Source: Eledone cirrhosa (taxonomy: Eukaryota). From it: DNA of 64,000 nucleotides. The notes under the pieces were generated by a model. That model worked only from the letters and a program-made list of their open reading frames with translations, ran no database searches and had not been told where the DNA came from. This document shows, in pieces, positions 6,277 to 60,196 of this stretch; position 1 is the stretch's first letter; every line of letters starts with the position of its first letter. The position numbers and the translations under genes were made by a program. Location of the stretch: assembly GCA_964016885.1 (NCBI GenBank), contig OZ024748.1:5208001-5272000 (forward strand). The letters run 5' to 3'.

Positions 6277-6279
<3 letters not shown>

Positions 6280-6536
6280 TTCAAAATATTAACAAAATAG
6301 ATATTCTTATGATCAAGTATATTTTATTATACATATTTCAGAGGTACTGAGTTAACTTCAACAGTACGTCCTCATCAGATAAAATAAGATGATGCATGAC
6401 ATACCCTGACATAGTAGATGGTTAAGATTCAGTCATGGTATTGAATTAATAACTCCGGAAAACCAATACTGTTGAGTGCTTCCAATCTATTGTAAAACTC
6501 CTTCTTTGATTTATTCATTGAACCTTGTTTAACCTT

Positions 6537-6540
<4 letters not shown>
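6277..6540. mobile_element. Family A-related PLE derivative with one arm and a tail
   Basis: (TA)n-flanked; minus-strand HHR at 6320-6386; GACATACCCT shared with family A; plus-strand tail motif ACTC...TTGAGTGCT at 6452-6480. Confidence 0.7.
6320..6386 (-). ncRNA. Minimal type I hammerhead ribozyme
   Basis: Minus strand: TATTTTAT-CTGATGA-GGACGTACTG-TTGAAGTTAACT-CAGTACCTCT-GAAA-TATGTATA^ATAAAATA. Confidence 0.8.
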
Positions 6541-7865: not shown

Positions 7866-8107
7866 TATATATATAAATATACATACATATATATATATAT
7901 ATACACACACACACATATATATATATATAAATATACATACATATATATGTATATATATATATGAATATACATACATATATATATATATATATATATGATG
8001 GGATACAACAAGCAAATATTTTTATAACTGAAATAAAGCACTCAACAAATATGTGGAGTAAAAATACAATATGAACAAATGGAAACTATATTTATAAAAC
8101 CATATTT

Positions 8108-8317: not shown

Positions 8318-8380
8318 ATTTTATCTGATGAAAGCACACCATAATTTAACTTGGTGTTCTTGAAATATGTATAATGAAAT
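8318..8380 (+). ncRNA. Minimal type I hammerhead ribozyme (family A, right arm)
   Basis: ATTTTAT-CTGATGA-AAGCACACCATAATTTAACTTGGTGTTCTT-GAAA-TATGTATA^ATGAAAT. Confidence 0.8.
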
Positions 8381-14575: not shown

Positions 14576-14610
<35 letters not shown>

Positions 14611-14619
14611 TGTGTATAA

Positions 14620-14815
14620 GTCCCCGGTTCAATCGGAGGTAACCACAGTAAGTAAGGTACTAAAAAGATTAGTAGAGTGTAAACATCATGTTTAATATAG
14701 AAATGGTTTCTACAGAACTACAACTGTTTTATTCAAAAGAAATCATTAGGACTTTCCTAATGATTTCTTTCGAATGAAACAGATCAAGTCCTGTAGAAGC
14801 CATTTCTATATTAAA

Positions 14816-14820
<5 letters not shown>
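14620..14820 (-). mobile_element. Fold-back element family D with HHR-like core; relatives at 12222-12297 and 50062-50180
   Basis: Arms 14688-14750 and 14756-14818; CTAATGA-TTTC-TTTC-GAAT-GAAAC-AGATCAA-GTC; tail is the reverse complement of 50128-50180. Confidence 0.72.
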
Positions 14821-14853
<33 letters not shown>

Positions 14854-14980
14854 GTGAGGTTTTTTTACAAAATGAAAAATAACCGAGGTGTCCTACACGA
14901 GTGAAAGTTTAAAGAAAAAAAGATGAAATCGAACATGCAACTGGAGTCTTATTTAAAAAAAAAAGATATATATATATATA

Positions 14981-15286
14981 TACAATATATTAATAAGTGG
15001 AAACTATATTTATAAAACCATATTTATTTTATTATACATATTTTAAGGGCCACCAAGGCAAATTATGGTGCGCTTTCATAAGATAAAATACAGATTTGAT
15101 GAAAGCGCACCATAGTTTGCTCTGGTGGCCCTTGAAATATGTATAATAAAATAAATATAGTTTTATAAATATAGTTTCCATTTATTAATATATTGTATAT
15201 TTACTCCACTAATATGTTGAGTGCTTTATATCAGTTATAAACATTTTTAAGCTTGTTGAATCCCAACAAATTAAATATAACCTCTG

Positions 15287-15290
<4 letters not shown>
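14981..15290 (+). mobile_element. Fold-back PLE derivative, family A, degenerate HHRs
   Basis: Inverted arms about 14981-15080 and 15097-15197, tail to 15290; right-arm core reads TTGATGA...GAAATATGTATAATAAAAT; (TA)n on both sides. Confidence 0.8.
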
Positions 15291-15357
<67 letters not shown>

Positions 15358-15382
15358 ATTTATAAATATATATATATATATA

Positions 15383-15847
15383 TGTGATAATAGCATAAAT
15401 AATATACAAGTTAACAAATGTAACTGTAGAGATAGATCTAAATGTCCGTTAAATAACAACTGCTTAGTTAAAAATATAGTATACAATTGTAATGTTAAAA
15501 CTGATTCTAATTCTTTTAACTACGTCGGTTCCACATCGACGGAATTTAAACTTCGCTATAATAACCACAAGAATTCTTTCACAGATCCAAGCAAAAAATC
15601 TTCAACGGCACTATCAGGCGTACTCTGGCAACTTAAGCTAGATAACGTTAGATATTCGACGGCTTGGAATATAGTCTCAAGAGGAATTCCTTTTAATTCA
15701 TCCTCTGAGACATGCGACCTCTGCGCAGAGGAGATATTCTTTATACTAAAATCTAAAAACTCCCTTAATCTACGGACAAATTTATTCAGTTGCTGCAAAC
15801 ATAGATTAAACTCAACTTATAAATATAAATTTAAATTTAAAATGTAG
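15383..15847 (+). pseudogene. 5'-truncated GIY-YIG endonuclease domain of a Penelope-like retroelement (Naiad-like); 154 codons, no internal stop, no start codon
   Basis: Manual translation: ...NKCNCRDRSKCPLNNNCLVKNIVYNCNVKTDSNSFNYVGSTSTEFKLRYNNHKNSF...STALSGVLWQLK...AWNIVSRGIPFNSSSETCDLCAEEIFFILKSKNSLNLRTNLFSCCKHR...KM*. NIVY/YVG correspond to GIY/YIG; catalytic-type R (FKLRY), E (AEE) and N (LN) present; upstream CxCx5Cx5C and H/CxxC/H zinc ligands. Starts directly after a (TA)n tract. Confidence 0.9.
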
Positions 15848-17211
15848 TATATTTAGTTTGATTTATAAGTATTTGGGAAACTAGCCGATAAATCTTTCGA
15901 TTTCTTCTTTTTATTCTTCTTTTTATTTTTATTTTTATTTTTATTTAAACATTCTTCATGGAAAATTAAACTACCCTAAAAGTTGATGCTCCAAATATTT
16001 CGAATAAACGTTACACTAGATAAACTTCTATATTAAATATAAGAATACATGTAGACCAAATGGGCATCCTAAACTTTTTGAAATGATTTTTGCTAGATGC
16101 GATTTGATAAATAATTTTTAGCTTTATCTGTTTTCGACTCTGATGCTTATAATGAACTTGGCAATATATTGTCAATTAATTTTGAAGGGTTGATCTTTGT
16201 GGTTTATTTTTAGTATTGTAGTATTTTCTAATATTTTTAATATGTAATATTTTTAATATGTAATATTTTTTCGTAATATTTTTTAGTTTTCTATTTTATT
16301 ATTATTTATTTATTATTATTATTATTATTTATTATTATTATTATTGTTGTTTTTTGGTTTTTGGTTTTTGTTTCTGATATATTTTTTATTAATATATTGA
16401 AATCTGCTCTCTATTTCTGCTTGATAGATAATCTTGTAGAGTAAAGACAAGAATAGTAGTAATATAGACTCTATATATATGTGTATATATATACACATAT
16501 GTGTATACTTAAATTTTTATAGCATCATGTAAATTCACATCGATGTTTGTAGTTATCATATAAACATATGAATTTTTTAAAACTAAACATAAGATCATTA
16601 CTTTTCACACATTATGGATACGTGTCTCATTCAGGAATACTGATATTTTCAATATAGTGCCTGGTTTTTATACATATTTTTTATACATATTAATACTTCT
16701 ACATTAAAACATAGGGTTTATATGCCTCGCCTATGTCTGATTACTTTTCATTTTTCTCGCTATATAACTGCTGGTTTCTCTCCTAACCACATATACCTCC
16801 CTTACATTAATACTAGAGCTAAATAAATAAATAAATAAATAAATAAATGTATCATTGATACGTTTACTCAACGGATGTCCAACTACATATTTTTCTATTC
16901 TATATATATATCTATCTCTATCTATTTCCTCTCTCTATATATATCTCTCTCTGTTTCTTTACATGAAGTTCTTCTCTTTATCTATCTTTCCATCTCTCTT
17001 TTTTGTTCCATGCATTTCTTCTTTTTCTTCTTTTTCTTCGTTTTCTGTCTTTCTTTCTTTTTTCTCTCTTTCTTTCTTTCTGTTTACAATTTTTTCACTG
17101 CCAATTCAATTTTTTCACTGCCAATTTTTTCACTGCCAATTCAACTTTTCAAATACAAGTCGATGTTGTACGGTATGTCAAATCTATTTATCTATAAAAC
17201 TGTTTATATTG

Positions 17212-17277
17212 TATTTTGTCTGAGGAAGGCATAGCATATTGTTAATATGATATTCCTGAAATATATATAACGAAATA
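17212..17277 (+). ncRNA. Minimal type I hammerhead ribozyme
   Basis: TATTTTGT-CTGAGGA-[stem II AGGCATAGCATATT-GTT-AATATGATATTCCT]-GAAA-TATATATA^ACGAAATA; stem I TATTTTGT/ACGAAATA, palindromic stem III, AUA triplet. Confidence 0.8.
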
Positions 17278-17389
17278 AATATGGTTTTATAAATATAGTT
17301 TCCATTTATTTAATATCGTATATATATATATATATATTTTTATATATATATATATTTATATATATATATATTTATATATATATATCGTT

Positions 17390-17578
17390 GCATTACTACT
17401 TTTGTTTGTCTACTGTCCCTCTTTCTCCACCCTATTCGCTCTGTCCCAATAACTTATTTTAGCTATTGCTCGCACTGATTTTGAGGTATCTGGTCTTTAA
17501 TGCGAAGAAATACCGCTGATAGTCAGAAGATCACTGATGATGGACAGTCCCGTTTCTCGCTCTATTTTTCATTCTTAT
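17390..17578 (+). repeat. (TA)n-associated dispersed repeat; inverted relatives at about 6660-6790 and 60715-60825
   Basis: Shared CCCAATAACTTAT...GGTATCT(G/T)GTCTTTAA.GCG.AGAAATA...ACTGATGA blocks with the 6660-6790 copy; ACTGA(T/A)GA and GGAC.GTCCC shared with the 60715-60825 copy. Confidence 0.55.
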
Positions 17579-17590
17579 ATATATATATAT

Positions 17591-17785
17591 ATAGGAAAAA
17601 GTATGACCCCGACGGCAGAGCTCAAGCCGTTTCGACGGCTATTTTTGGTCCAGAAATAGCCGTCGAAACGGCTTGAGCTCTGCCGTTGGGGTCATACTTT
17701 TTCCTATTTCCCACTCTACTACCCTAAGTATTGAGTACTCTGGTGCGTTATGGTCCATCTGGTTCCTTACCACAATTCTTTTGTT
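17591..17785 (+). mobile_element. Fold-back element family B (about 58-bp arms plus tail) in (TA)n
   Basis: Palindrome 17591-17707 centred on TGGTCCAG; tail with ACTCTAC...TTGAGTACT; further copies at 28041, 30881, 42434 and 56465. Confidence 0.8.
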
Positions 17786-28040: not shown

Positions 28041-28148
28041 TAACGAAGGAAGTGTGGTAAGGAACCAGGTGGACCATAACGCACAAGAGTACTCGATACT
28101 TAGGGTTGTAGAGTGGGTAACAGGAAAAGAGTCAGGACCCCGGGGTCA

Positions 28149-28150
<2 letters not shown>
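28041..28150 (-). mobile_element. Family B element, internally deleted
   Basis: Tail sequence AACGAAGGAAGTGTGGTAAGGAACC... then a collapsed GACCCCGGGGTC palindrome. Confidence 0.7.
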
Positions 28151-30880: not shown

Positions 30881-30885
<5 letters not shown>

Positions 30886-31069
30886 CGGAGGAGGTGTGGT
30901 AAGGAACCAGATGGACCATAACGCACCAGAGTACTGAATACTTAGGGAAGTAGAGTGGGTAATAGGAAAATGTTTAACCCAGACGGCAGAGCTCAAGCCG
31001 TTTCGACGGCTATTTCAGTCCAGAAATAGCCGTTGAAACGGCTTGAGCTCTGCTGTCTGGGTTAAACAT

Positions 31070-31073
<4 letters not shown>
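30881..31073 (-). mobile_element. Fold-back element family B
   Basis: Tail followed by palindrome about 30967-31073; homologous to 17591-17785; (TA)n flanks. Confidence 0.8.
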
Positions 31074-33388: not shown

Positions 33389-33671
33389 GCATATATATAT
33401 ATCACATGCACAGCCAAGATGAAGAAAACTGAGGCATTTTATAATTCTAACATTTTTTTTACAAGAATGACCAGAAACAAATATATTAGTGAAATAAAGA
33501 TGGTAAGAAACTTTGCTCAAACTCCATAATTCGTATACACAAGTAGCTATATATTTTAATCCGAACATTAATTCGATAAATTAGACAGTAAACATTAAGA
33601 TGCGCACTTCATGTCTTCAGAGAATTGGCGTATTATATCACAACATATATATATATATGATATATGGAATA

Positions 33672-34110
33672 TAATTGTTTCTACTTTTGGCACAAGGCCA
33701 GCAATCACCCAGTGCATTACTGGTACTTTATTTTATCGACCCCGTAAGGATGAAAGGCAAAGTTAACCTCGGCGGGATTTGAACTCAGAATGGCAAGGGC
33801 CGTAACTCTATGCATCAAAGCATGGCGTCCGACCCTCTACCGATACTGCCAGGAATATAATGTACCTCTATTAATAACCACTAAAGAGAGTAACGTTAAG
33901 TTTTAAGGGACAACAATATCATTATATTCCTGGCAGTATCGGTAGAGGGTCGGACGCCATGCTTTGACGCATAGAGTTACGGCCCTTGCCATTCTGAGTT
34001 CAAATCCCGCCGAGGTTAACTTTGCCTTTCATCCTTACGGGGTCGATAAAATAAAGTACCAGTAATGTACTGGTTAATTGCTGGCCTTGTGCCTAACGTA
34101 GAAACAATTA
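33672..34110. mobile_element. Head-to-head pair of S1 SINEs (33672-33851 minus, 33931-34110 plus)
   Basis: Near-identical inverted copies about 80 bp apart; left copy has TSD GGAATATAAT. Confidence 0.88.
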
Positions 34111-34264
34111 TATTTACCAAAATAGTAGCGGTCCACTCTGTGATAAAATAGAATTAATTTAATCAGGCTACTACCCTGTCAGAATGAACCTGGCATCACA
34201 GTTTCTGAAAAGTAATCCTTAATAACTCATCTTTGCTTGCGCCTAATAACCCCCCACCCCTCAT

Positions 34265-34870: not shown

Positions 34871-37800
34871 CAGTGGTTCCCAACCTTTCGTGCACCATGC
34901 CCACCTCAACATTTCAAAAATTGTTGACCCCACCCCACCCAATTTATATGAAAATAGCAATGATCAACTGCAAAGTGTAAACAATTTTTTGTGTATGGAT
35001 CTACAATAACATATGTGGTGGAGGAGGTGAGACAGGAGTTTCTGATAGTAATGTGTACCATATAGGTTGTGCCAGATGTACAATAACATGTGGTGGAGGA
35101 GGTGAGACAGGAGTTTCTGATAGTAATGTGTACCATATAGGTTGTGCCAGATGTACAATAACATGTGGTGGAGGAGGTGAGACAGGAGTTTCTGATAGTA
35201 ATGTGTACCATATAGGTTGTGCCAGATGTACAATAACATGTGGTGGAGGAGGTGAGACAGGAGTTTCTGATAGTAATGTGTACCATGTAGGTGGTGCCAG
35301 ATGTACAATAACATGTGGTGGAGGAGGTGAGACAGGAGTTTCTGATAGTAATATCTACCATATAGGTTGTGCCAGATGTACAATAACATGTGGAGGAGGA
35401 GGTGAGACAGGAGTTTCTGATAGTAATGTGTACCATATAGGTGGTGCCAGATGTACAATAACATGTGGTGGAGGAGGTGAGACAGGAGTTTCTGATAGTA
35501 ATGTGTACCATATAGGTGGTGCCAGATGTACAATAACATGTGGTGGAGGAGGTGAGACAGGAGTTTCTGATAGTAATGTGTACCATATAGGTGGTGCCAG
35601 ATGTACAATAACATGTGTGGTGGAGGAGGTGAGACAGGAGTTTCTGATAGTAATGTGTACCATATAGGTTGTGCCAGATCTACAATAACATGTGGAGGAG
35701 GAGGTGAGACAGGAGTTTCAAGCAGTAATATCTACCATATAGGTTGTGCCAGATGTACAATAACATGTGGTGGAGGAGGTGAGACAGGAGTTTCAAGCAG
35801 TAATATCTACCATATAGGTGGTGCCAGATGTACAATAACATGTGGTGGAGGAGGTGAGACAGGAGTTTCTGATAGTAATGTGTACCATATAGGTTGTGCC
35901 AGATGTACAATAACATGTGGAGGAGGAGGTGAGACAGGAGTTTCTGATAGTAATGTGTACCATATAGGTGGTGCCAGATGTACAATAACATGTGGTGGAG
36001 GAGGTGAGACAGGAGTTTCTGATAGTAATGTGTACCATATAGGTGGTGCCAGATGTACAATAACATGTGGTGGAGGAGGTGAGACAGGAGTTTCTGATAG
36101 TAATGTGTACCATATAGGTGGTGCCAGATGTACAATAACATGTGGTGGAGGAGGTGAGACAGGAGTTTCTGATAGTAATATCTACCATATAGGTTGTGCC
36201 AGATGTACAATAACATGTGGTGGAGGAGGTGAGACAGGAGTTTCTGATAGTAATGTGTACCATATAGGTTGTGCCAGATGTACAATAACATGTGGTGGAG
36301 GAGGTGAGACAGGAGTTTCTGATAGTAATGTGTACCATATAGGTTGTGCCAGATGTACAATAACATGTGGTGGAGGAGGTGAGACAGGAGTTTCTGATAG
36401 TAATGTGTACCATATAGGTTGTGCCAGATGTACAATAACATATGTGGTGGAGGAGGTGAGACAGGAGTTTCTGATAGTAATGTGTACCATATAGGTGGTG
36501 CCAGATGTACAATAACATATGTGGTGGAGGAGGTGAGACAGGAGTTTCTGATAGTAATGTGTACCATATAGGTGGTGCCAGATGTACAATAACATGTGGT
36601 GGAGGAGGTGAGACAGGAGTTTCTGATAGTAATGTGTACCATATAGGTTGTGCCAGATCTACAATAACATGTGGAGGAGGAGGTGAGACAGGAGTTTCAA
36701 GCAGTAATATCTACCATATAGGTTGTGCCAGATGTACAATAACATGTGGTGGAGGAGGTGAGACAGGAGTTTCAAGCAGTAATATCTACCATATAGGTTG
36801 TGCCAGATGTACAATAACATGTGGTGGAGGAGGTGAGACAGGAGTTTCAAGCAGTAATATCTACCATATAGGTTGTGCCAGATGTACAATAACATGTGGT
36901 GGAGGAGGTGAGACAGGAGTTTCTGATAGTAATGTGTACCATATAGGTGGTGCCAGATGTAGAATAACATGTGGAGGAGGTGAGACAGGAGTTTCTGATA
37001 GTAATGTGTACCATATAGGTTGTGCCAGATGTACAATAACATGTGGTGGAGGAGGTGAGACAGGAGTTTCAAGCAGTAATATCTACCATATAGGTTGTGC
37101 CAGATGTACAATAACATGTGGTGGAGGAGGTGAGACAGGAGTTTCTGATAGTAATGTGTACCATATAGGTTGTGCCAGATGTACAATAACATGTGGTGGA
37201 GGAGGTGAGACTGGAGTTTCAAGCAGTAATATCTACCATATAGGTTGTGCCAGATGTACAATAACATGTGGTGGAGGAGGTGAGACAGGAGTTTCAAGCA
37301 GTAATATCTACCATATAGGTTGTGCCAGATGTACAATAACATGTGGTGGAGGAGGTGAGACAGGAGTTTCAAGCAGTAATATCTACCATATAGGTTGTGC
37401 CAGATGTACAATAACATGTGGTGGAGGAGGTGAGACAGGAGTTTCAAGCAGTAATATCTACCATATAGGTTGTGCCAGATGTACAATAACATGTGGTGGA
37501 GGAGGTGAGACAGGAGTTTCTGATAGTAATGTGTACCATATAGGTTGTGCCAGATGTACAATAACATGTGGTGGAGGAGGTGAGACAGGAGTTTCTGATA
37601 GTAATGTGTACCATATAGGTTGTGCCAGATGTACAATAACATATGTGGTGGAGGAGGTGAGACAGGAGTTTCTGATAGTAATGTGTACCATATAGGTGGT
37701 GCCAGATGTACAATAACATGTGGTGGAGGAGGTGAGACAGGAGTTTCTGACAGTAAAGTCTATCAAAGTGCCTTGGTGAAAAAGTAATAAAGTAAAACCT

Positions 37801-42433: not shown

Positions 42434-42627
42434 TAACGAAGGAAATGTGGTAAGGAACCAGGTGGACCATAACGCACCAAAGTACTCAATACTTAGGGTA
42501 GTAGAGTGGGTAATAGGAACGAGTAGGACCTCGACGGCTGAGCTCAAGCCGTTTCGACGGCTAATTCTGGACGTCCAGAATTAGCCGTCGAAACGGCTTG
42601 AGCTCAGCCGTCGGAGTCTTACTGGTT

Positions 42628-42631
<4 letters not shown>
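42434..42631 (-). mobile_element. Fold-back element family B
   Basis: Tail followed by palindrome centred on CTGGACGTCCAG; (TA)n flanks. Confidence 0.8.
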
Positions 42632-42658
<27 letters not shown>

Positions 42659-42663
<5 letters not shown>

Positions 42664-43050
42664 ATATTAATAATTGGAAACTATATTTATAAAACCATAA
42701 TTATTTTATTATATATATTTCAAGGGCAACCAAAGCAGTTTTGGTGCACTTTCATCAGATAAAATACAAAATTTGTTTTTTCCACTATCCAGCGAACCTT
42801 CAACCGTCAAGGTTGTTTTTCTAAGGGTATGTCAAGATTTATAAAACAAATTTTGTATTTTATCTGATGAAAGCGCACCAAAACTGTCTTCGTTGCCCTT
42901 GAAATATATATAATAAAATAATTATGGTTTTATAAATATAGTTTCCATTTATTAATATATTGAATATTTACTCCAGTAAATTGTTGAGTGCTTTATATCA
43001 GTTATAAAACTTTTAAGCTTGTTGAATCCCAACAAATTAAATATAACTTC

Positions 43051-43053
<3 letters not shown>
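42659..43053 (+). mobile_element. Fold-back PLE derivative, family A
   Basis: Arms about 42659-42779 and 42844-42962 with a roughly 65-bp loop; tail nearly identical to 15197-15290; (TA)n on both sides. Confidence 0.85.
42857..42919 (+). ncRNA. Minimal type I hammerhead ribozyme (family A); antisense twin at 42703-42765
   Basis: ATTTTAT-CTGATGA-AAGCGCACC...GTTGCCCTT-GAAA-TATATATA^ATAAAAT. Confidence 0.78.
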
Positions 43054-43093
<40 letters not shown>

Positions 43094-43385
43094 GTTAATA
43101 TAAATTAATGTATTTGATAAACACAAATCCCAACATATTCATGTTTGTATTGTAAATGACCAAGTTAGCTAGATTGAAATATACTAATAATATATATATC
43201 GTTTCTGAATTTCTTTAGCAAGAAACATGTGTTGAAACCGATATTGTTATGCTTTGGGAGGGTCATGGTGCCAATAAGAAACACACGCACCAGTTGCATT
43301 CACTCCAATTTATTATAAATGAAATTTATAAATTTAAGAATTCATAAATTTCCGGTTGGTTGGTTGGTTCCACAACCGGACGGTT

Positions 43386-43448
<63 letters not shown>

Positions 43449-43631
43449 CAACCGTCGGGTTGTATATATATAAATGGAAAAGGATGAAACGAAATTTCAT
43501 TTCCCACTCTTAGTACGGCTGATACTAAAATGTAAGTATGTACACGTACATACATATATGTATACAGACGTACAGTAGTAAGTATATATATACTTACATG
43601 TACACATATATATATATATGTGTGTGTGTGT

Positions 43632-43780
43632 GTGAATGAAGTAATTCCGTCGGAAAGGTACAGGAAAAAAGAGTGCTCTATGCAGATTACAGAGCTTATT
43701 AGTTATGTAAAAAACAACATAAGATAATTATTTCATTTACCACTGGTAAATGAAATAATTATCTTATGTTGTTTACTACC

Positions 43781-43787
<7 letters not shown>
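43632..43787 (-). mobile_element. Short fold-back element (31-bp perfect arms plus tail)
   Basis: AAACAACATAAGATAATTATTTCATTTACCA-C-TGGTAAATGAAATAATTATCTTATGTTGTTT; tail motif GCTC...GAGCACT on the minus strand; microsatellite flanks. Confidence 0.65.
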
Positions 43788-56466: not shown

Positions 56467-56578
56467 ACAAAGGAATTGTGGTAAGGAACCAGATGGACCA
56501 TAACGCACCAGAGTACTCAATACAGAAATAGCCGTCGAAACGGCTTGACCTCTGCCGTCGGGGTCATACTTTTTCCTA
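56465..56578 (-). mobile_element. Family B element with one arm deleted
   Basis: Tail ...GAGTACTCAATA is joined directly to the distal arm CAGAAATAGCCGTCGAAAC... Confidence 0.75.
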
Positions 56579-56589
56579 TATATATATAT

Positions 56590-57160
56590 ATATTTCGTTT
56601 CTGAATTTGTTTAGCAAGATTCTTTACCTGAAAACGTGTGATGAAACCAATATTGTTATGCTTTAGGAGGGTCATGTTGCCAATAAGAAACACACGCACC
56701 AGTTGCTTTCACTTCAATTTATAAATTTCCGGTTGGTTGGTTGGTTCCACAACCAGACGATTGTTCACATATTGTCAAAATTCTTTTGTCACAGATTCTG
56801 TGACCTCTTCAGTGACTGGGGATTCTTTTCTTTGTTTTTGTGCCTCTCATTTGTTCTGTCCTACGCCATCTTGTTTTTGTGTGTCATCTTGTTTTTGTGT
56901 GACACACAAAAACAAGATGGCGTAGGACAGAACAAAGGAGAGGCACAAAAACAAAGAAAAGAATCCGCAGTCACTGAAGAGGTCACAGAATGTGTGACGA
57001 AAGAACTTTGACAATATATGAACAATCGTCTGGTTGTGGAACCAACCAACCAACCGGAAATTTATAAATCTTTAAATTTATAAATTTCATTTATAATAAA
57101 TTGAAGTGAAAGCAACTGGTGCGTGTGTTTCTTATTGGCAACATGACCCTCCCAAAGCAT

Positions 57161-57168
<8 letters not shown>
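56590..57168 (-). mobile_element. Fold-back element family F (about 250-bp arms); partial copy at 43200-43463
   Basis: Arms about 56650-56886 and 56900-57168; HHR in the arms; (TA)n flanks. Confidence 0.82.
56970..57012 (+). ncRNA. Minimal type I hammerhead ribozyme (family F)
   Basis: GTCA-CTGAAGA-G-GTCACA-GAATG-TGTGAC-GAAA-GAACTT^TGAC; the antisense twin (about 56774-56816) has GAAA changed to AAAA. Confidence 0.68.
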
Positions 57169-57203
<35 letters not shown>

Positions 57204-57711
57204 GAAAGTGAACATCACAAAATATAACTACTTCATTACCAAATGTTTCTGGATTCCAGACCATAATAATATATGTCTGGATCTGTCGTCAGACAGAGAT
57301 GTTATTAAAAATACAAAAATATACACACATAGACACGTACACGTAGTTATATATATATATAACTACGTGTACGTGTCTATGTGTGTATATGTGTATATGT
57401 ATGTATTTTTATGTTTGTCTGCTTTGCGTATATTTGCGTGTGTGTATGTGTGTGTATATATGTGTGAGTGTGTGTGCGCGCTCGTAAAAGACAATTTAAC
57501 GAATCCGACTGAGAAGGGAGACATGCCAAGCCAATATGTTGTAATACAATCTCTGGAGGACAATGATAGATCTTCGTGAGAATTTCATGCGAAACATTGA
57601 TTGTTAGTGATACGCTATTTGCATGAATGCTCGTACGTTGGTGTTCAGGGTTCTCGGCTGAAAATCCTAAGGCTATGAGTTAGATTCCTTGTGGTGCGTT
57701 GTTTCATTTAA

Positions 57712-58190
57712 TGGTTTCTAATATAGGCATAAGGCCAGCAATTTTGGGGGAGGGTAAAGTCGATTAAATCGACCCCAGTGCGTGACTGGTACTTTATTTT
57801 ATCGACCCCGTAAGGATGAAAGGTAAAGTTAACCTTGGCGGCATTTGAACTCAGATCATAAAGGGCCGTAACGCCATGCTACAAAGCATGGCGTCCGACA
57901 CTTTACCGATACTGCCAATCCACCGCCCTCGCATTGTTTCATGTAATAAGGCATTATATTTCACGGTGTTAGGGCGGTGGATTGGCAATATCGGTAGAGG
58001 GTCGGACGCCATGCTTTGCAGCATATAGTTACGGCCATTTATGATCTGAGTTCAAAATCCTGCCGAAGATAACTTTGCATTTCATCCTTACGAGTAGATA
58101 AAATAAAGTACCAGTCACACACTGGGGTCGATTTAATCGACTTTCTCCTCCCCCAAAATTGCTGGCCTTCTGCCTATATAAGAAACCATT
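57712..58190. mobile_element. Head-to-head pair of full-length S1 SINEs nested in an S2 SINE
   Basis: 57712-57928 minus and 57972-58190 plus; direct repeats TTGTTTCAT.TAAT and CATTATATTTCACG flank the individual copies; S2 head at 57640-57710 and S2 body at 58190-58330. Confidence 0.82.
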
Positions 58191-58974
58191 ATATTTCACG
58201 TCGTTCAATTCACTCAGCTGGGAATAAATGAGTCGTACCTGCAATTTAAATGGTCATCCGTTGAAAACACTGTTTTACGCTGAATCTCCCTGAGAATTAA
58301 GTTATGTGTGTAGATGTCTGTGTAATACCCACATACACGTTTATATTGTGCGCATATTGTAATATTGTTTGAACAACTGGAACACTAACCAAAACGCATA
58401 CACTCCAGTTACTTAAAGCTATCCGCAAAAACATATTCCCATTTTACTTCTATAATTATTATCATTTGAGTAAGTTTAGTGTTTGAATCCCGTCGAGTTT
58501 AGTTTTACTTTTAATTCTTACGGAGTCCATAAAATAAAGTACCAGTAATCTACTGGGGTCGATTTGATCGATTTTTCCCTTTCCCCTCTAAATTGATTGC
58601 TTTGTGGCAAATGTAGAAACAATTCTTTTACTAAGGGTAAGGAATGTGGATAGGCAGAGTGGCTAGATCGTCGAACAACATGCTTTGTGGCATAGAGTTA
58701 CGTCCCTCTGAGTTCAAATCCCGTCGTGGTTAACATTGCATTTCATCATTTTTTGTGTATAGTTTTATGATATTATCAGATCTAATGTGTGTTCTAATGT
58801 TTTTGTGTGAAACTTCACAATGTGGTTTGATATGATAGAAATATAAGAGACATCTGCAAGGATTGTTTTGCAAAGTAATTATAGAAGCAACGAACAAATG
58901 AGATATAGAAAACAGAGAAGACAGATATACAGATACATAGATGAATAAAGAAATATATATTTAGATAGATGTAG

Positions 58975-59707: not shown

Positions 59708-60194
59708 TAAAAACGAAAAATCAGTGATGCATCTGGACTCAGTTTATTGCGTGTTACAATTGTTTCGCCGGCAGGTAGCTCGAGACATGATCACTGTATG
59801 GATCTGGCTGATTCTACGGCTGCAGGTTCCTTCGGACACGGGCAGTTCGTTCGGAGCAAATTTTCTTTCAAAAAACATCTTTCACTCTTGTCATGCCATT
59901 GGCTGTTGTTATTCTACGTCATGTTTTTTGAAGGTGTTTTTTGACGATAACACCCCAGTGAGAAAATTTGCTCCGAACGAACTACCCGTGTCCGAAGGAA
60001 CCTGCAGCCGTATAATCCATACAGTGATCATGTATCGAGCTACCTGCCTGCGAAACAATTGAAAACACGTAATAAACAGAGTCCAGATGCATCACTGATT
60101 TTTCGTTTTTTTATACTCTCCACACTACTCTGTATGAATATTGAGTGCTAATTTTGGCATGCCGCCTATGGAAAAACCATAGCACTATACACAA

Positions 60195-60196
<2 letters not shown>
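59708..60196 (+). mobile_element. Fold-back element family G (about 145-bp arms, about 100-bp loop, tail)
   Basis: Arms about 59708-59858 and 59961-60112; tail with ACTC...TTGAGTGCT; (TA)n flanks; variant HHR core CCGAAGG...GAAACAATTGTA. Confidence 0.8.

Follow-up and report, generated by a model that had tools for sequence, protein, structure and literature searches.

The Hydra clade of Penelope-like elements (PLEs) consists of elements with a C-terminal endonuclease (EN) and is listed to include Hydra-1_Obim of Octopus bimaculoides, with its (TA)n preference, whereas the Naiads have an N-terminal EN and no canonical hammerhead (Craig et al., 2021; PMC8557442). Here we analyse a 64,000-nt stretch of the Eledone cirrhosa genome (assembly GCA_964016885.1, contig OZ024748.1, positions 5,208,001–5,272,000 of the forward strand; hereafter the window), in which an original prediction, made from the letters alone, had placed a Penelope-like helper remnant and a set of non-autonomous, hammerhead-bearing hairpin elements mobilized by Naiad-type proteins. 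We consider it fairly probable (roughly two chances in three) that at least seven Hydra-type PLE families and one Neptune-like family are present in the window, as one 5′-truncated copy and numerous very short head-to-head insertions, the latter likely being cDNAs of the capped 5′ leader of their own sense RNA.

It is standard for PLEs to occur in head-to-head units tailed on one side (PMC3846280, PMC8557442), and transcription starts within the pseudo-long terminal repeat (pseudo-LTR) in Penelope and Chlamys (PMC8557442); in a rotifer pseudo-LTR, TCACT has been called initiator-like. Opposite-strand hammerhead pairs 100–700 bp apart have been ascribed to truncated PLEs (Cervera and de la Pena, 2014; PMC4209133). 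Arkhipova (2013; PMC3846280) favours antisense self-priming, plus recombination for solo pseudo-LTRs. In vitro, both strands are cut and extended by a PLE protein for which a dimer is predicted; two internal RNA start sites bound the tail, and ribozyme cleavage is dispensable (Frangieh et al., 2024; PMC11167929). An untemplated 5′ G has been ascribed to cap copying for L1 and SVA (PMC3287187), and tandem retrozymes derived from PLE pseudo-LTRs are described in a 2026 preprint (bioRxiv 10.64898/2026.07.22.740005). How the tandem and inverted structures of PLEs form, and whether on a sense or an antisense template, is left open in the texts consulted (PMC3846280, PMC8557442, PMC11167929).

The interest of the locus lies in base-precise footprints of how these PLEs insert: the thousands of young insertions in this genome give predictions, precise to the base, of start sites, of two priming sites and of one template for both arms. 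The window, which lies on the contig labelled C8 and is very rich in microsatellites, was searched within the 3.0-Gb assembly. Family labels (A1–A4 and B–H) are those of the present analysis, and the letters B–G of the original prediction are not mappable onto them; by 'cliff' we mean the base, ∼185 nt from the element 3′ end, where arm ends pile up.

The A1 copy and its protein

The central element and its parts are as follows (no sign where no strand is assigned).
15290–15383: interrupted (TA)n left of A1, whose TTTT/TT break pattern recurs at 17319–17385, as judged by eye
15384–17318, +: A1 copy, a 5′-truncated young Hydra-type PLE with the last 153 codons, ∼1.47 kb of 3′ untranslated region (UTR) and a pseudo-LTR, tail absent
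15386–15847, +: linker CxCx5Cx5C and GIY-YIG endonuclease, amino acids 585–737 of a 737-aa open reading frame (ORF), with IVY...YVG, R, CxxC-E, N and CxH
17087–17149, +: initiator-like TTCACT region, triplicated in this copy, its last A at 17132, 187 nt from the 3′ end
17212–17277, +: minimal type I hammerhead, core CTGAGGA at 17220, 6-nt self-complementary stem III/loop, predicted cleavage after 17269
17319–17385: interrupted (TA)n right of A1

The open GIY-YIG frame reported at 15383–15847 is indeed an uninterrupted 154 aa, its first codon coming from the TA flank and the element codons beginning at 15386. A protein-level search of the genome with this frame gave 150 scored matches among 61,655 first-look candidates; all 150 were 98–100% identical at the amino acid level and several lay within 745-codon open frames. 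At the nucleotide level the window copy is 92% identical over 1935 nt to the full-length natural copy L023. A1 is a young family with intact full-length copies and the window copy is an ordinary 5′-truncated member, not the remnant of a helper. By eye, a target duplication of ∼65 nt likely flanks it, which a strict script did not detect.

The full-length natural copy codes for 737 aa in a single ORF, the reverse transcriptase (RT) first and the GIY-YIG endonuclease at the C-terminus, as expected from the Penelope-like origin proposed earlier. This ORF gave an RT-like profile match (E 0.003). For the endonuclease frame, ESM Atlas placed GIY-YIG clusters first (0.96), in agreement with the proposed identity, which Pfam did not echo: nothing reached the cut-off for the 154-aa frame, the full ORF or seven other proteins. 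At E 1e-30 or better there were 476 relatives, and ten of these, when inspected, bore no informative name. DKT stands at aa 118 and is found in 33 of the 42 aligned rows with residues at that site. The N-terminal motif is RWR in P0002, RWK and RWR (12/34 rows each) being the commonest forms, versus RWK of the Hydra clade. The linker reads CNCRDRSKC (CxCx5C), a single Cys lies between IVY and YVG (CCHH absent), CDLC stands beside E and CKH beside N. A-type ends abut TA directly or after the tail in 11 of 12 cases in a 664-kb sample, which bears out the predicted targeting of (TA)n. Unit lengths of 3.8 kb (L023) and 4.2 kb (L071) exceed the <3 kb tendency of the Hydra clade, which is not a strict criterion. 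Placed by features rather than by a tree, the A1 protein matches the Hydra clade in its motifs, C-terminal EN, hammerhead and (TA)n target. The Naiad label was rejected because Naiads have an N-terminal EN and no canonical hammerhead, whereas here an N-terminal EN with CCHH is absent and a canonical hammerhead is present.

The mini-elements are mostly ends of ORF-coding families

Eleven repeat types were recognized in the window: eight tied to RT-EN frames elsewhere in the genome (seven Hydra-type, one Neptune-like), two with no partner found and one resembling a short interspersed nuclear element (SINE). The members of the eight tied types, other than A1, are listed with their identity to ORF-linked ends.
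6277–6540, −: family A4 element, a single ∼170-nt arm with hammerhead, then a ∼12-nt opposite end plus tail, no hairpin; 96–98% to the ends around the EN frame in L213
7997–8421: family A2 mini-element, head-to-head, tail on the left (7997–8068), intact hammerhead in both arms, both ending at the A2 cliff; 97–98% to ORF-bearing copies L071 and L227
14981–15289, +: head-to-head mini-element of an A3-related subfamily, arms 14982–15196, tail 15197–15289, hammerhead cores decayed; 90% to ORF-linked A3 ends
17594–17785, +: family C mini-element, ∼55-nt arms from TTT/AGTCC, ∼80-nt tail, only the 3′ half of a decayed hammerhead
28043–28150, 30885–31073, 42436–42629 and 56467–56576: further family C mini-elements; family C as a whole 96–98% to the ends of the RT-EN frame in L211, with a 3′ UTR in common with L299
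33054–33326: family H mini-element, hammerhead-like with a variant core; 88% to the 3′ end of the RT-EN frame in L313
42659–43054, +: family A3 mini-element, head-to-head, tail on the right, two intact hammerheads, right arm beginning at the A3 cliff; 94–97% to ORF-bearing copies L303, L305 and L307
43199–43388: second family D hairpin; 83–93% to ORF-linked ends
43632–43785: family G mini-element; 88–89% to the ends flanking the RT-EN frame in L221
56595–57164: family D hairpin, a Neptune-like PLE end (CX4CxxC linker, CCHH) with one intact hammerhead core; 97% to the 3′ end of the RT-EN frame in L218

ORF-bearing copies were found for A2 (L071, L227), A3 (L303–L307), A4 (L213), C (L211), G (L221) and H (L313), and the family D partner L218 carries a Neptune-like protein with CCHH, an assignment made by motif. 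Apart from the hairpin at 43199, window mini-elements of the eight types are thus 88–98% identical to ORF-linked ends, so that the arms, as had been asked of them, are found attached to RT/EN frames elsewhere in the genome. The arms correspond to element 3′ ends; the tail corresponds to the opening ∼90 nt of the 5′ UTR, where it is found in position ahead of the ORF. The homology claimed between the terminal part of the A1 copy and hairpin arms stands for 17172–17318 (∼148 nt), which is 83–84% identical to the arms at 7997; the element at 6277 is not a hairpin and that at 14981 has no intact core. An inverted-arm layout with a one-sided tail in (TA)n likewise holds at 14981, 7997, 42659, 17594, 30885, 42436, 14688, 43632, 56595, 59709 and 33054, but the palindromes at 33668 and 57706 are SINE-like. 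DNA contigs of four runs compared with 14975–15295 gave arms, tail and many small head-to-head joints, and no piece spanning that junction.

Head-to-head junctions differ by eye from locus to locus across 29 A2 and 30 A3 loci; family C loci were largely uniform in one loop-containing query, and unselected C copies vary around one start. The same layout occurs at the kilobase scale, with arms of at least 1.9 kb in ten A1 loci (chosen because paired matches showed). A tree built from 47 A2 pseudo-LTRs does not separate short copies from long ones (13 label changes versus a shuffled mean of 14.6, 119 of 500 shuffles being as low). Since junctions and arm lengths vary by copy and the layout recurs at the kilobase scale, most mini-elements are short insertion products, a trait already described for Penelope elements. 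By their sequences they are mostly end pieces of ORF-coding PLE families, not separate mini-elements, and each of the eight tied types has its own cognate family instead of a shared helper. An all-against-all estimate of arm length was discarded as confounded by hairpin-to-hairpin matches.

The alternative closest to the original prediction is that the mini-elements propagate themselves as non-autonomous ribozyme elements that a helper mobilizes in trans; an internal promoter could then drive transcription of a solo leader with its tail, to be copied again. Copies of family C of near-fixed length are very numerous (5079 at one start), those reaching the cliff would hold the start site plus both RT start sites, rotifer pseudo-LTRs act in trans, and PLE pseudo-LTRs have given rise to tandem retrozymes; families E and F, treated below, have no ORF partner found, and four F copies have one upstream boundary. 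Set against this are the differing A2 and A3 junctions, an A2 tree with no mini-only lineage, the identity of eight types to ORF-linked ends, and the absence of the ribozyme core from most window mini-elements; a fixed length, moreover, follows from a fixed start. We regard this alternative as unlikely, and for the A, C, D, G and H types a non-autonomous mini-family was rejected because junctions differ and no mini-only lineage is seen, the tree covering A2.

Hairpins of this kind are liable to be filed as miniature inverted-repeat transposable elements (MITEs) or miRNA-like palindromes, a risk of mis-annotation rightly foreseen; Penelope and MITE families are among those given as recently active in an octopus repeat annotation of 2026, and 'palindrome' is absent from its main text. 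That they are MITEs of DNA transposons targeting (TA)n is suggested by their terminal inverted repeats within TA tracts and is nonetheless extremely improbable: the arms are 3′ ends of retroelements with linked RT-EN frames, lengths are variable, the tail is one-sided, and target duplications, marked in 6 of 49 cases (control 0–4), are of no fixed length (11–54 nt). We therefore rejected the MITE label for A1–A4, C, D, G and H, and the prediction of retrotransposition rather than DNA transposition is upheld. A non-LTR retrozyme was also rejected, the units here being head-to-head pairs or solos and not head-to-tail tandems, as was a long-read fold-back artefact, because the arms differ by substitutions and by the tail.

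Several composite loci were seen on the way. In L346 (G000:C1:110683) an A2 leader start is fused in-strand to a family G 3′ end at the stem III palindrome, a cross-family template switch. Neptune-like ORF pieces are joined in-strand to an A2 end (L056 1197–1514) and, in L046 2001–3175 / L212, meet a family C arm head to head. Both arms of the kilobase-scale A1 pair in L024 run into the same flank of 110+ nt, inverted, indicating 3′ transduction or a larger inverted duplication. At G000:C1:133985656–133986160 and 86079117–86135978, three hairpins of identical spacing stand in tandem or near-tandem, probably by local duplication. In the window and beyond, individual TA tracts hold copies of different PLE families, newer ones lying in the TA flank of older mini-elements (14610–17785, 42436–43785, 56467–57164; L313 6844–8575).

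Partner arms, tails and the cliff

In the kilobase-scale A1 pairs, the partner arm was the nearest among 31 sequences in all ten cases, with 0–1.1% substitutions and 0–5 indels between partners, compared with 0.8–5.0% and 6–29 indels to the nearest other copy; one pair has a small substitution margin (1.10 versus 1.17%) but 3 indels versus 11. Of the 22 junction pairs scored for the tail, 16 had it on one arm, one on both and five on neither, the last class being inflated because the tail regex was strict and missed variants. The junction script scored neither A3 pairs nor the kilobase-scale A1 pairs; of the ten latter, seven are tailed at a single end, one at both ends and one at neither, the tenth having a cut end.

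Shared haplotypes between the arms of a pair are also expected if a single cDNA folds back and is recopied, or an antisense RNA does so, as has been suggested for rotifer Penelopes, or if inverted arms are homogenized after insertion. Some centres are palindromic (43632 at stem III; CCGG in 7997), short fold-back fillers occur at junctions, and an antisense self-priming model has been put forward (PMC3846280). Fold-back of a tailed first strand demands, however, that the tailed arm be the longer, which it is in just 6 of 14 pairs; an untailed short first strand is unable to yield the tail, and the cliff with an extra G on the sense 5′ side, described next, indicates a sense capped template. 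Fold-back or homogenization is accordingly improbable in our view.

Arm ends pile up sharply. Of 30 A3 arms, from copies selected by the last 40 nt and tail only, 25 stop within 184 nt of the 3′ end and 15 between −149 and −184. In exact genome-wide counts for A2, ACTATCC follows a non-template base in 718 arms and TATCC does so in 494, and 1348 arms carry the template YCC, although point mutations will account for part of the non-template class. Immediately ahead of the cliff, the base was G in 43 of the first 100 A2 matches listed and in 31 of all 56 A3 matches, compared with 10 of the first 100 matches listed for a control two bases further in (Fisher p 1e-7 and 2e-9; hand counts). In all 20 A2 loci with G that were fetched (the first 20 of 43) the upstream DNA was non-template, and in several loci the G follows pure TA tracts. 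Of the A1 arms, 6/30 end within 2 nt of TTC/ACTGCC. Family C has 5079 arms with non-T before AGTCC; among the first 100 listed, the base is G in 51 cases and C in 44. In four families of different sequence, the cliff thus falls on a pyrimidine/A initiator-like step; its motifs resemble initiator elements. The extra G at the fixed arm end is likely a trace left when the capped start of the RNA of the element itself was copied; the A at 17132 would then be the putative transcription start of A1.

A number of observations weigh against this reading. The G is attributable to the partner arm or a GA tract in 9 of the 20 G-loci by script and in 11 by eye, the sole usable control is biased to A by TA microhomology, and two other controls hit a minority haplotype and were uninformative. 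Only one of the six A1 cliff ends has the G, and in family C the G and C bases are confounded, the C-preceded class possibly being a template variant. About half of A2 arms extend beyond the cliff, and full-length copies differ in how long their upstream pseudo-LTR is. Junction microhomology shows no clear excess over chance, fillers are present at 13 of 22 junctions, and the A2 tree has poor resolution, with strong support for 4 of its 43 branches. Arm identity could alternatively stem from conversion between inverted repeats, and we infer the transcription start and the cap from genomic sequence alone. No four-gamete pairs were found across the cliff in 12 A1 copies, so that a retrovirus-like jump between different RNAs is unsupported.

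The elements could also be as described with a cliff that merely marks RT pausing at RNA structure and a G that reflects an end-joining preference, no capped start being involved. Small hairpins just inside the cliff, A3 arms that in several cases stop at −149 to −156 and the ambiguity of about half of the G cases favour this; the position of the cliff on the same kind of step in four families of different sequence, the fall of G from 43 to 10 per 100 two bases away and its occurrence after pure TA tracts do not. On balance, we find such an origin of the cliff quite improbable.

Hammerheads

The type I hammerhead predicted downstream of the A1 frame is present, and the descriptor scan found others at 8325 (+), 8163 (−), 42864 (+), 42758 (−) and 6378 (−), with no strict-form match in 20 block-shuffled windows. 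Across the A-type hammerheads (134 distinct sequences), A-U and G-C alternate at pairs 2 and 3 of stem II and in the self-complementary loop of stem III; because these are related copies, the counts do not represent independent events. Monomer folds of five hammerheads showed no clear gain in stability over shuffles (z 0.09 to −1.74), and in an Rfam scan of the window the best 150 of 434 matches were microsatellite-driven miRNA models, hammerhead being absent among these. By core and covariation, the A-type hammerheads are predicted ribozymes sited in the pseudo-LTR, as had been proposed. Most window mini-elements are not ribozyme carriers: an intact CTGANGA...GAAA core was found in only 5 of 18 window elements checked (6277, 7997, 15384–17318, 42659 and 56595), and the family G mini-element has none because it is folded back at the stem III palindrome. 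In ORF-linked copies of family C (L211 2100–2953; L299), a decayed core lies upstream of the putative start site, which suggests a successful family with no working ribozyme.

A model of insertion

Combining the in vitro data on a PLE protein (PMC11167929), transcription starts in pseudo-LTRs (PMC8557442) and the cap-copying G of L1 and SVA (PMC3287187) leads to a two-nick model with cap-terminated cDNAs, whose steps from cut to joining we infer as follows. The endonuclease would cut both strands of (TA)n, and reverse transcription would begin inside the RNA at two sites ∼90 nt apart, the pseudo-LTR end and the tail end, one per nick. Each cDNA would extend until fall-off or until the cap, which would be copied as an extra C; the two cDNA ends would then be joined with a short filler and filled in, giving a hairpin tailed on one arm. 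Longer head-to-head copies may arise by the same route from the 3′ pseudo-LTR or from read-through RNA, either of which would be needed as template for arms passing the cliff. The hammerhead would be copied uncleaved and is likely not needed at the insertion step.

More tentatively, and at somewhat less than even odds, PLEs may routinely integrate an equivalent of retroviral strong-stop DNA, a dimeric RT-endonuclease priming two cDNAs on one capped sense RNA at both (TA)n nicks, with both reaching the cap and being ligated head to head. If this is true, thousands of hairpins would map the transcription start of each family from genome sequence alone and settle template polarity, and family F leaders may have turned into a free-living, ribozyme-less, SINE-like element. 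For in vitro work, a Hydra-clade protein is available from the intact young copies.

Other repeats of the window

14610–14819: family E mini-element, left tail, decayed hammerhead
33668–34114 and 57706–58194: family B, inverted pairs of a tRNA-type SINE-like repeat, with a tRNA-type box, hammerhead absent, not a PLE end
59709–60195, +: family F mini-element, right tail, hammerhead-like relic with no core in copies viewed

In 25 search loci for each of E and F, plus 13 extended loci, no in-strand ORF partner was seen for either family. Copies of F have in common at least 0.74–0.86 kb of non-coding upstream DNA, and four of them share one upstream boundary ∼740 nt from the end (59709–60195; L300, L308, L248, L256, L259). 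Family F may be the best candidate for a true non-autonomous derivative, or may simply have a long 3′ UTR. The proposal of non-autonomous families, which the differing junctions and the intermixed short and long A2 copies contradict elsewhere, may still hold for the types at 14688 (E) and 59709 (F).

The family B repeat, which we take to be a SINE, forms head-to-head pairs that are 97% (33668–34114) and 86% (57706–58194) identical, the 5′ flank included, possibly by the same two-ended insertion route. ARAGORN found no tRNA gene in the window. Positions 34998–37756 are taken up by a tandem repeat of 75 bp (36.7 copies, 95% matches) in which both strands have open frames.

Comparison with known systems

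The remark that no description of such a multi-family system was known in this lineage is qualified by the earlier listings of Hydra-1_Obim in octopus (TA)n and of the 2014 opposite-strand hammerhead pairs. With the Hydra clade, the elements have in common the order RT then GIY-YIG, DKT, the CxCx5C linker, the lack of CCHH, CxxC/CxH around E/N, a canonical hammerhead near the 3′ end and (TA)n. They differ in having units of 3.8–4.2 kb with 1.5–2 kb 3′ UTRs (clade <3 kb), RWR in place of RWK, a tail of ∼90 nt (clade 30–40) and at least seven families in one genome, several of them very young. Naiads are similar in their (TA)n preference and inverted units with a tail, but their N-terminal EN, CCHH and lack of a canonical hammerhead do not hold here.

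The head-to-head arms, optional tail and initiator-like TCACT in the pseudo-LTR are found also in the units of Arkhipova (2013) and Craig et al. (2021, Fig. 2) and in the minimal hammerhead pairs of Schistosoma, as are the palindromic helix III and the location of most hammerheads in truncated copies; compared with what these sources and Cervera and de la Pena (2014) describe, the fixed 5′ cliff with an untemplated G and the same-haplotype test belong to the present analysis. Poseidon PAc of Anolis (PMC11167929) likewise has two internal RT starts around the tail, an AT-rich target, both strands extended and an uncleaved RNA template, although it belongs to another clade, its pseudo-LTR overlaps the ORF start, and the second-strand and joining steps were left open there. 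Animal non-LTR retrozymes are also non-coding, carry a type I hammerhead and come from PLE pseudo-LTRs, but they form head-to-tail tandems, whereas head-to-head pairs or solos, often lacking the core, are seen here. No description of a cap-terminated cliff or same-template arms in PLEs was found in the literature searched, which left out most subscription papers, the supplements of Frangieh et al. (2024) and the alignments of Craig et al. (2021). The elements themselves are of a known kind; what is added is the same-template partner arms, the one-arm tail and the cliff with its extra G.

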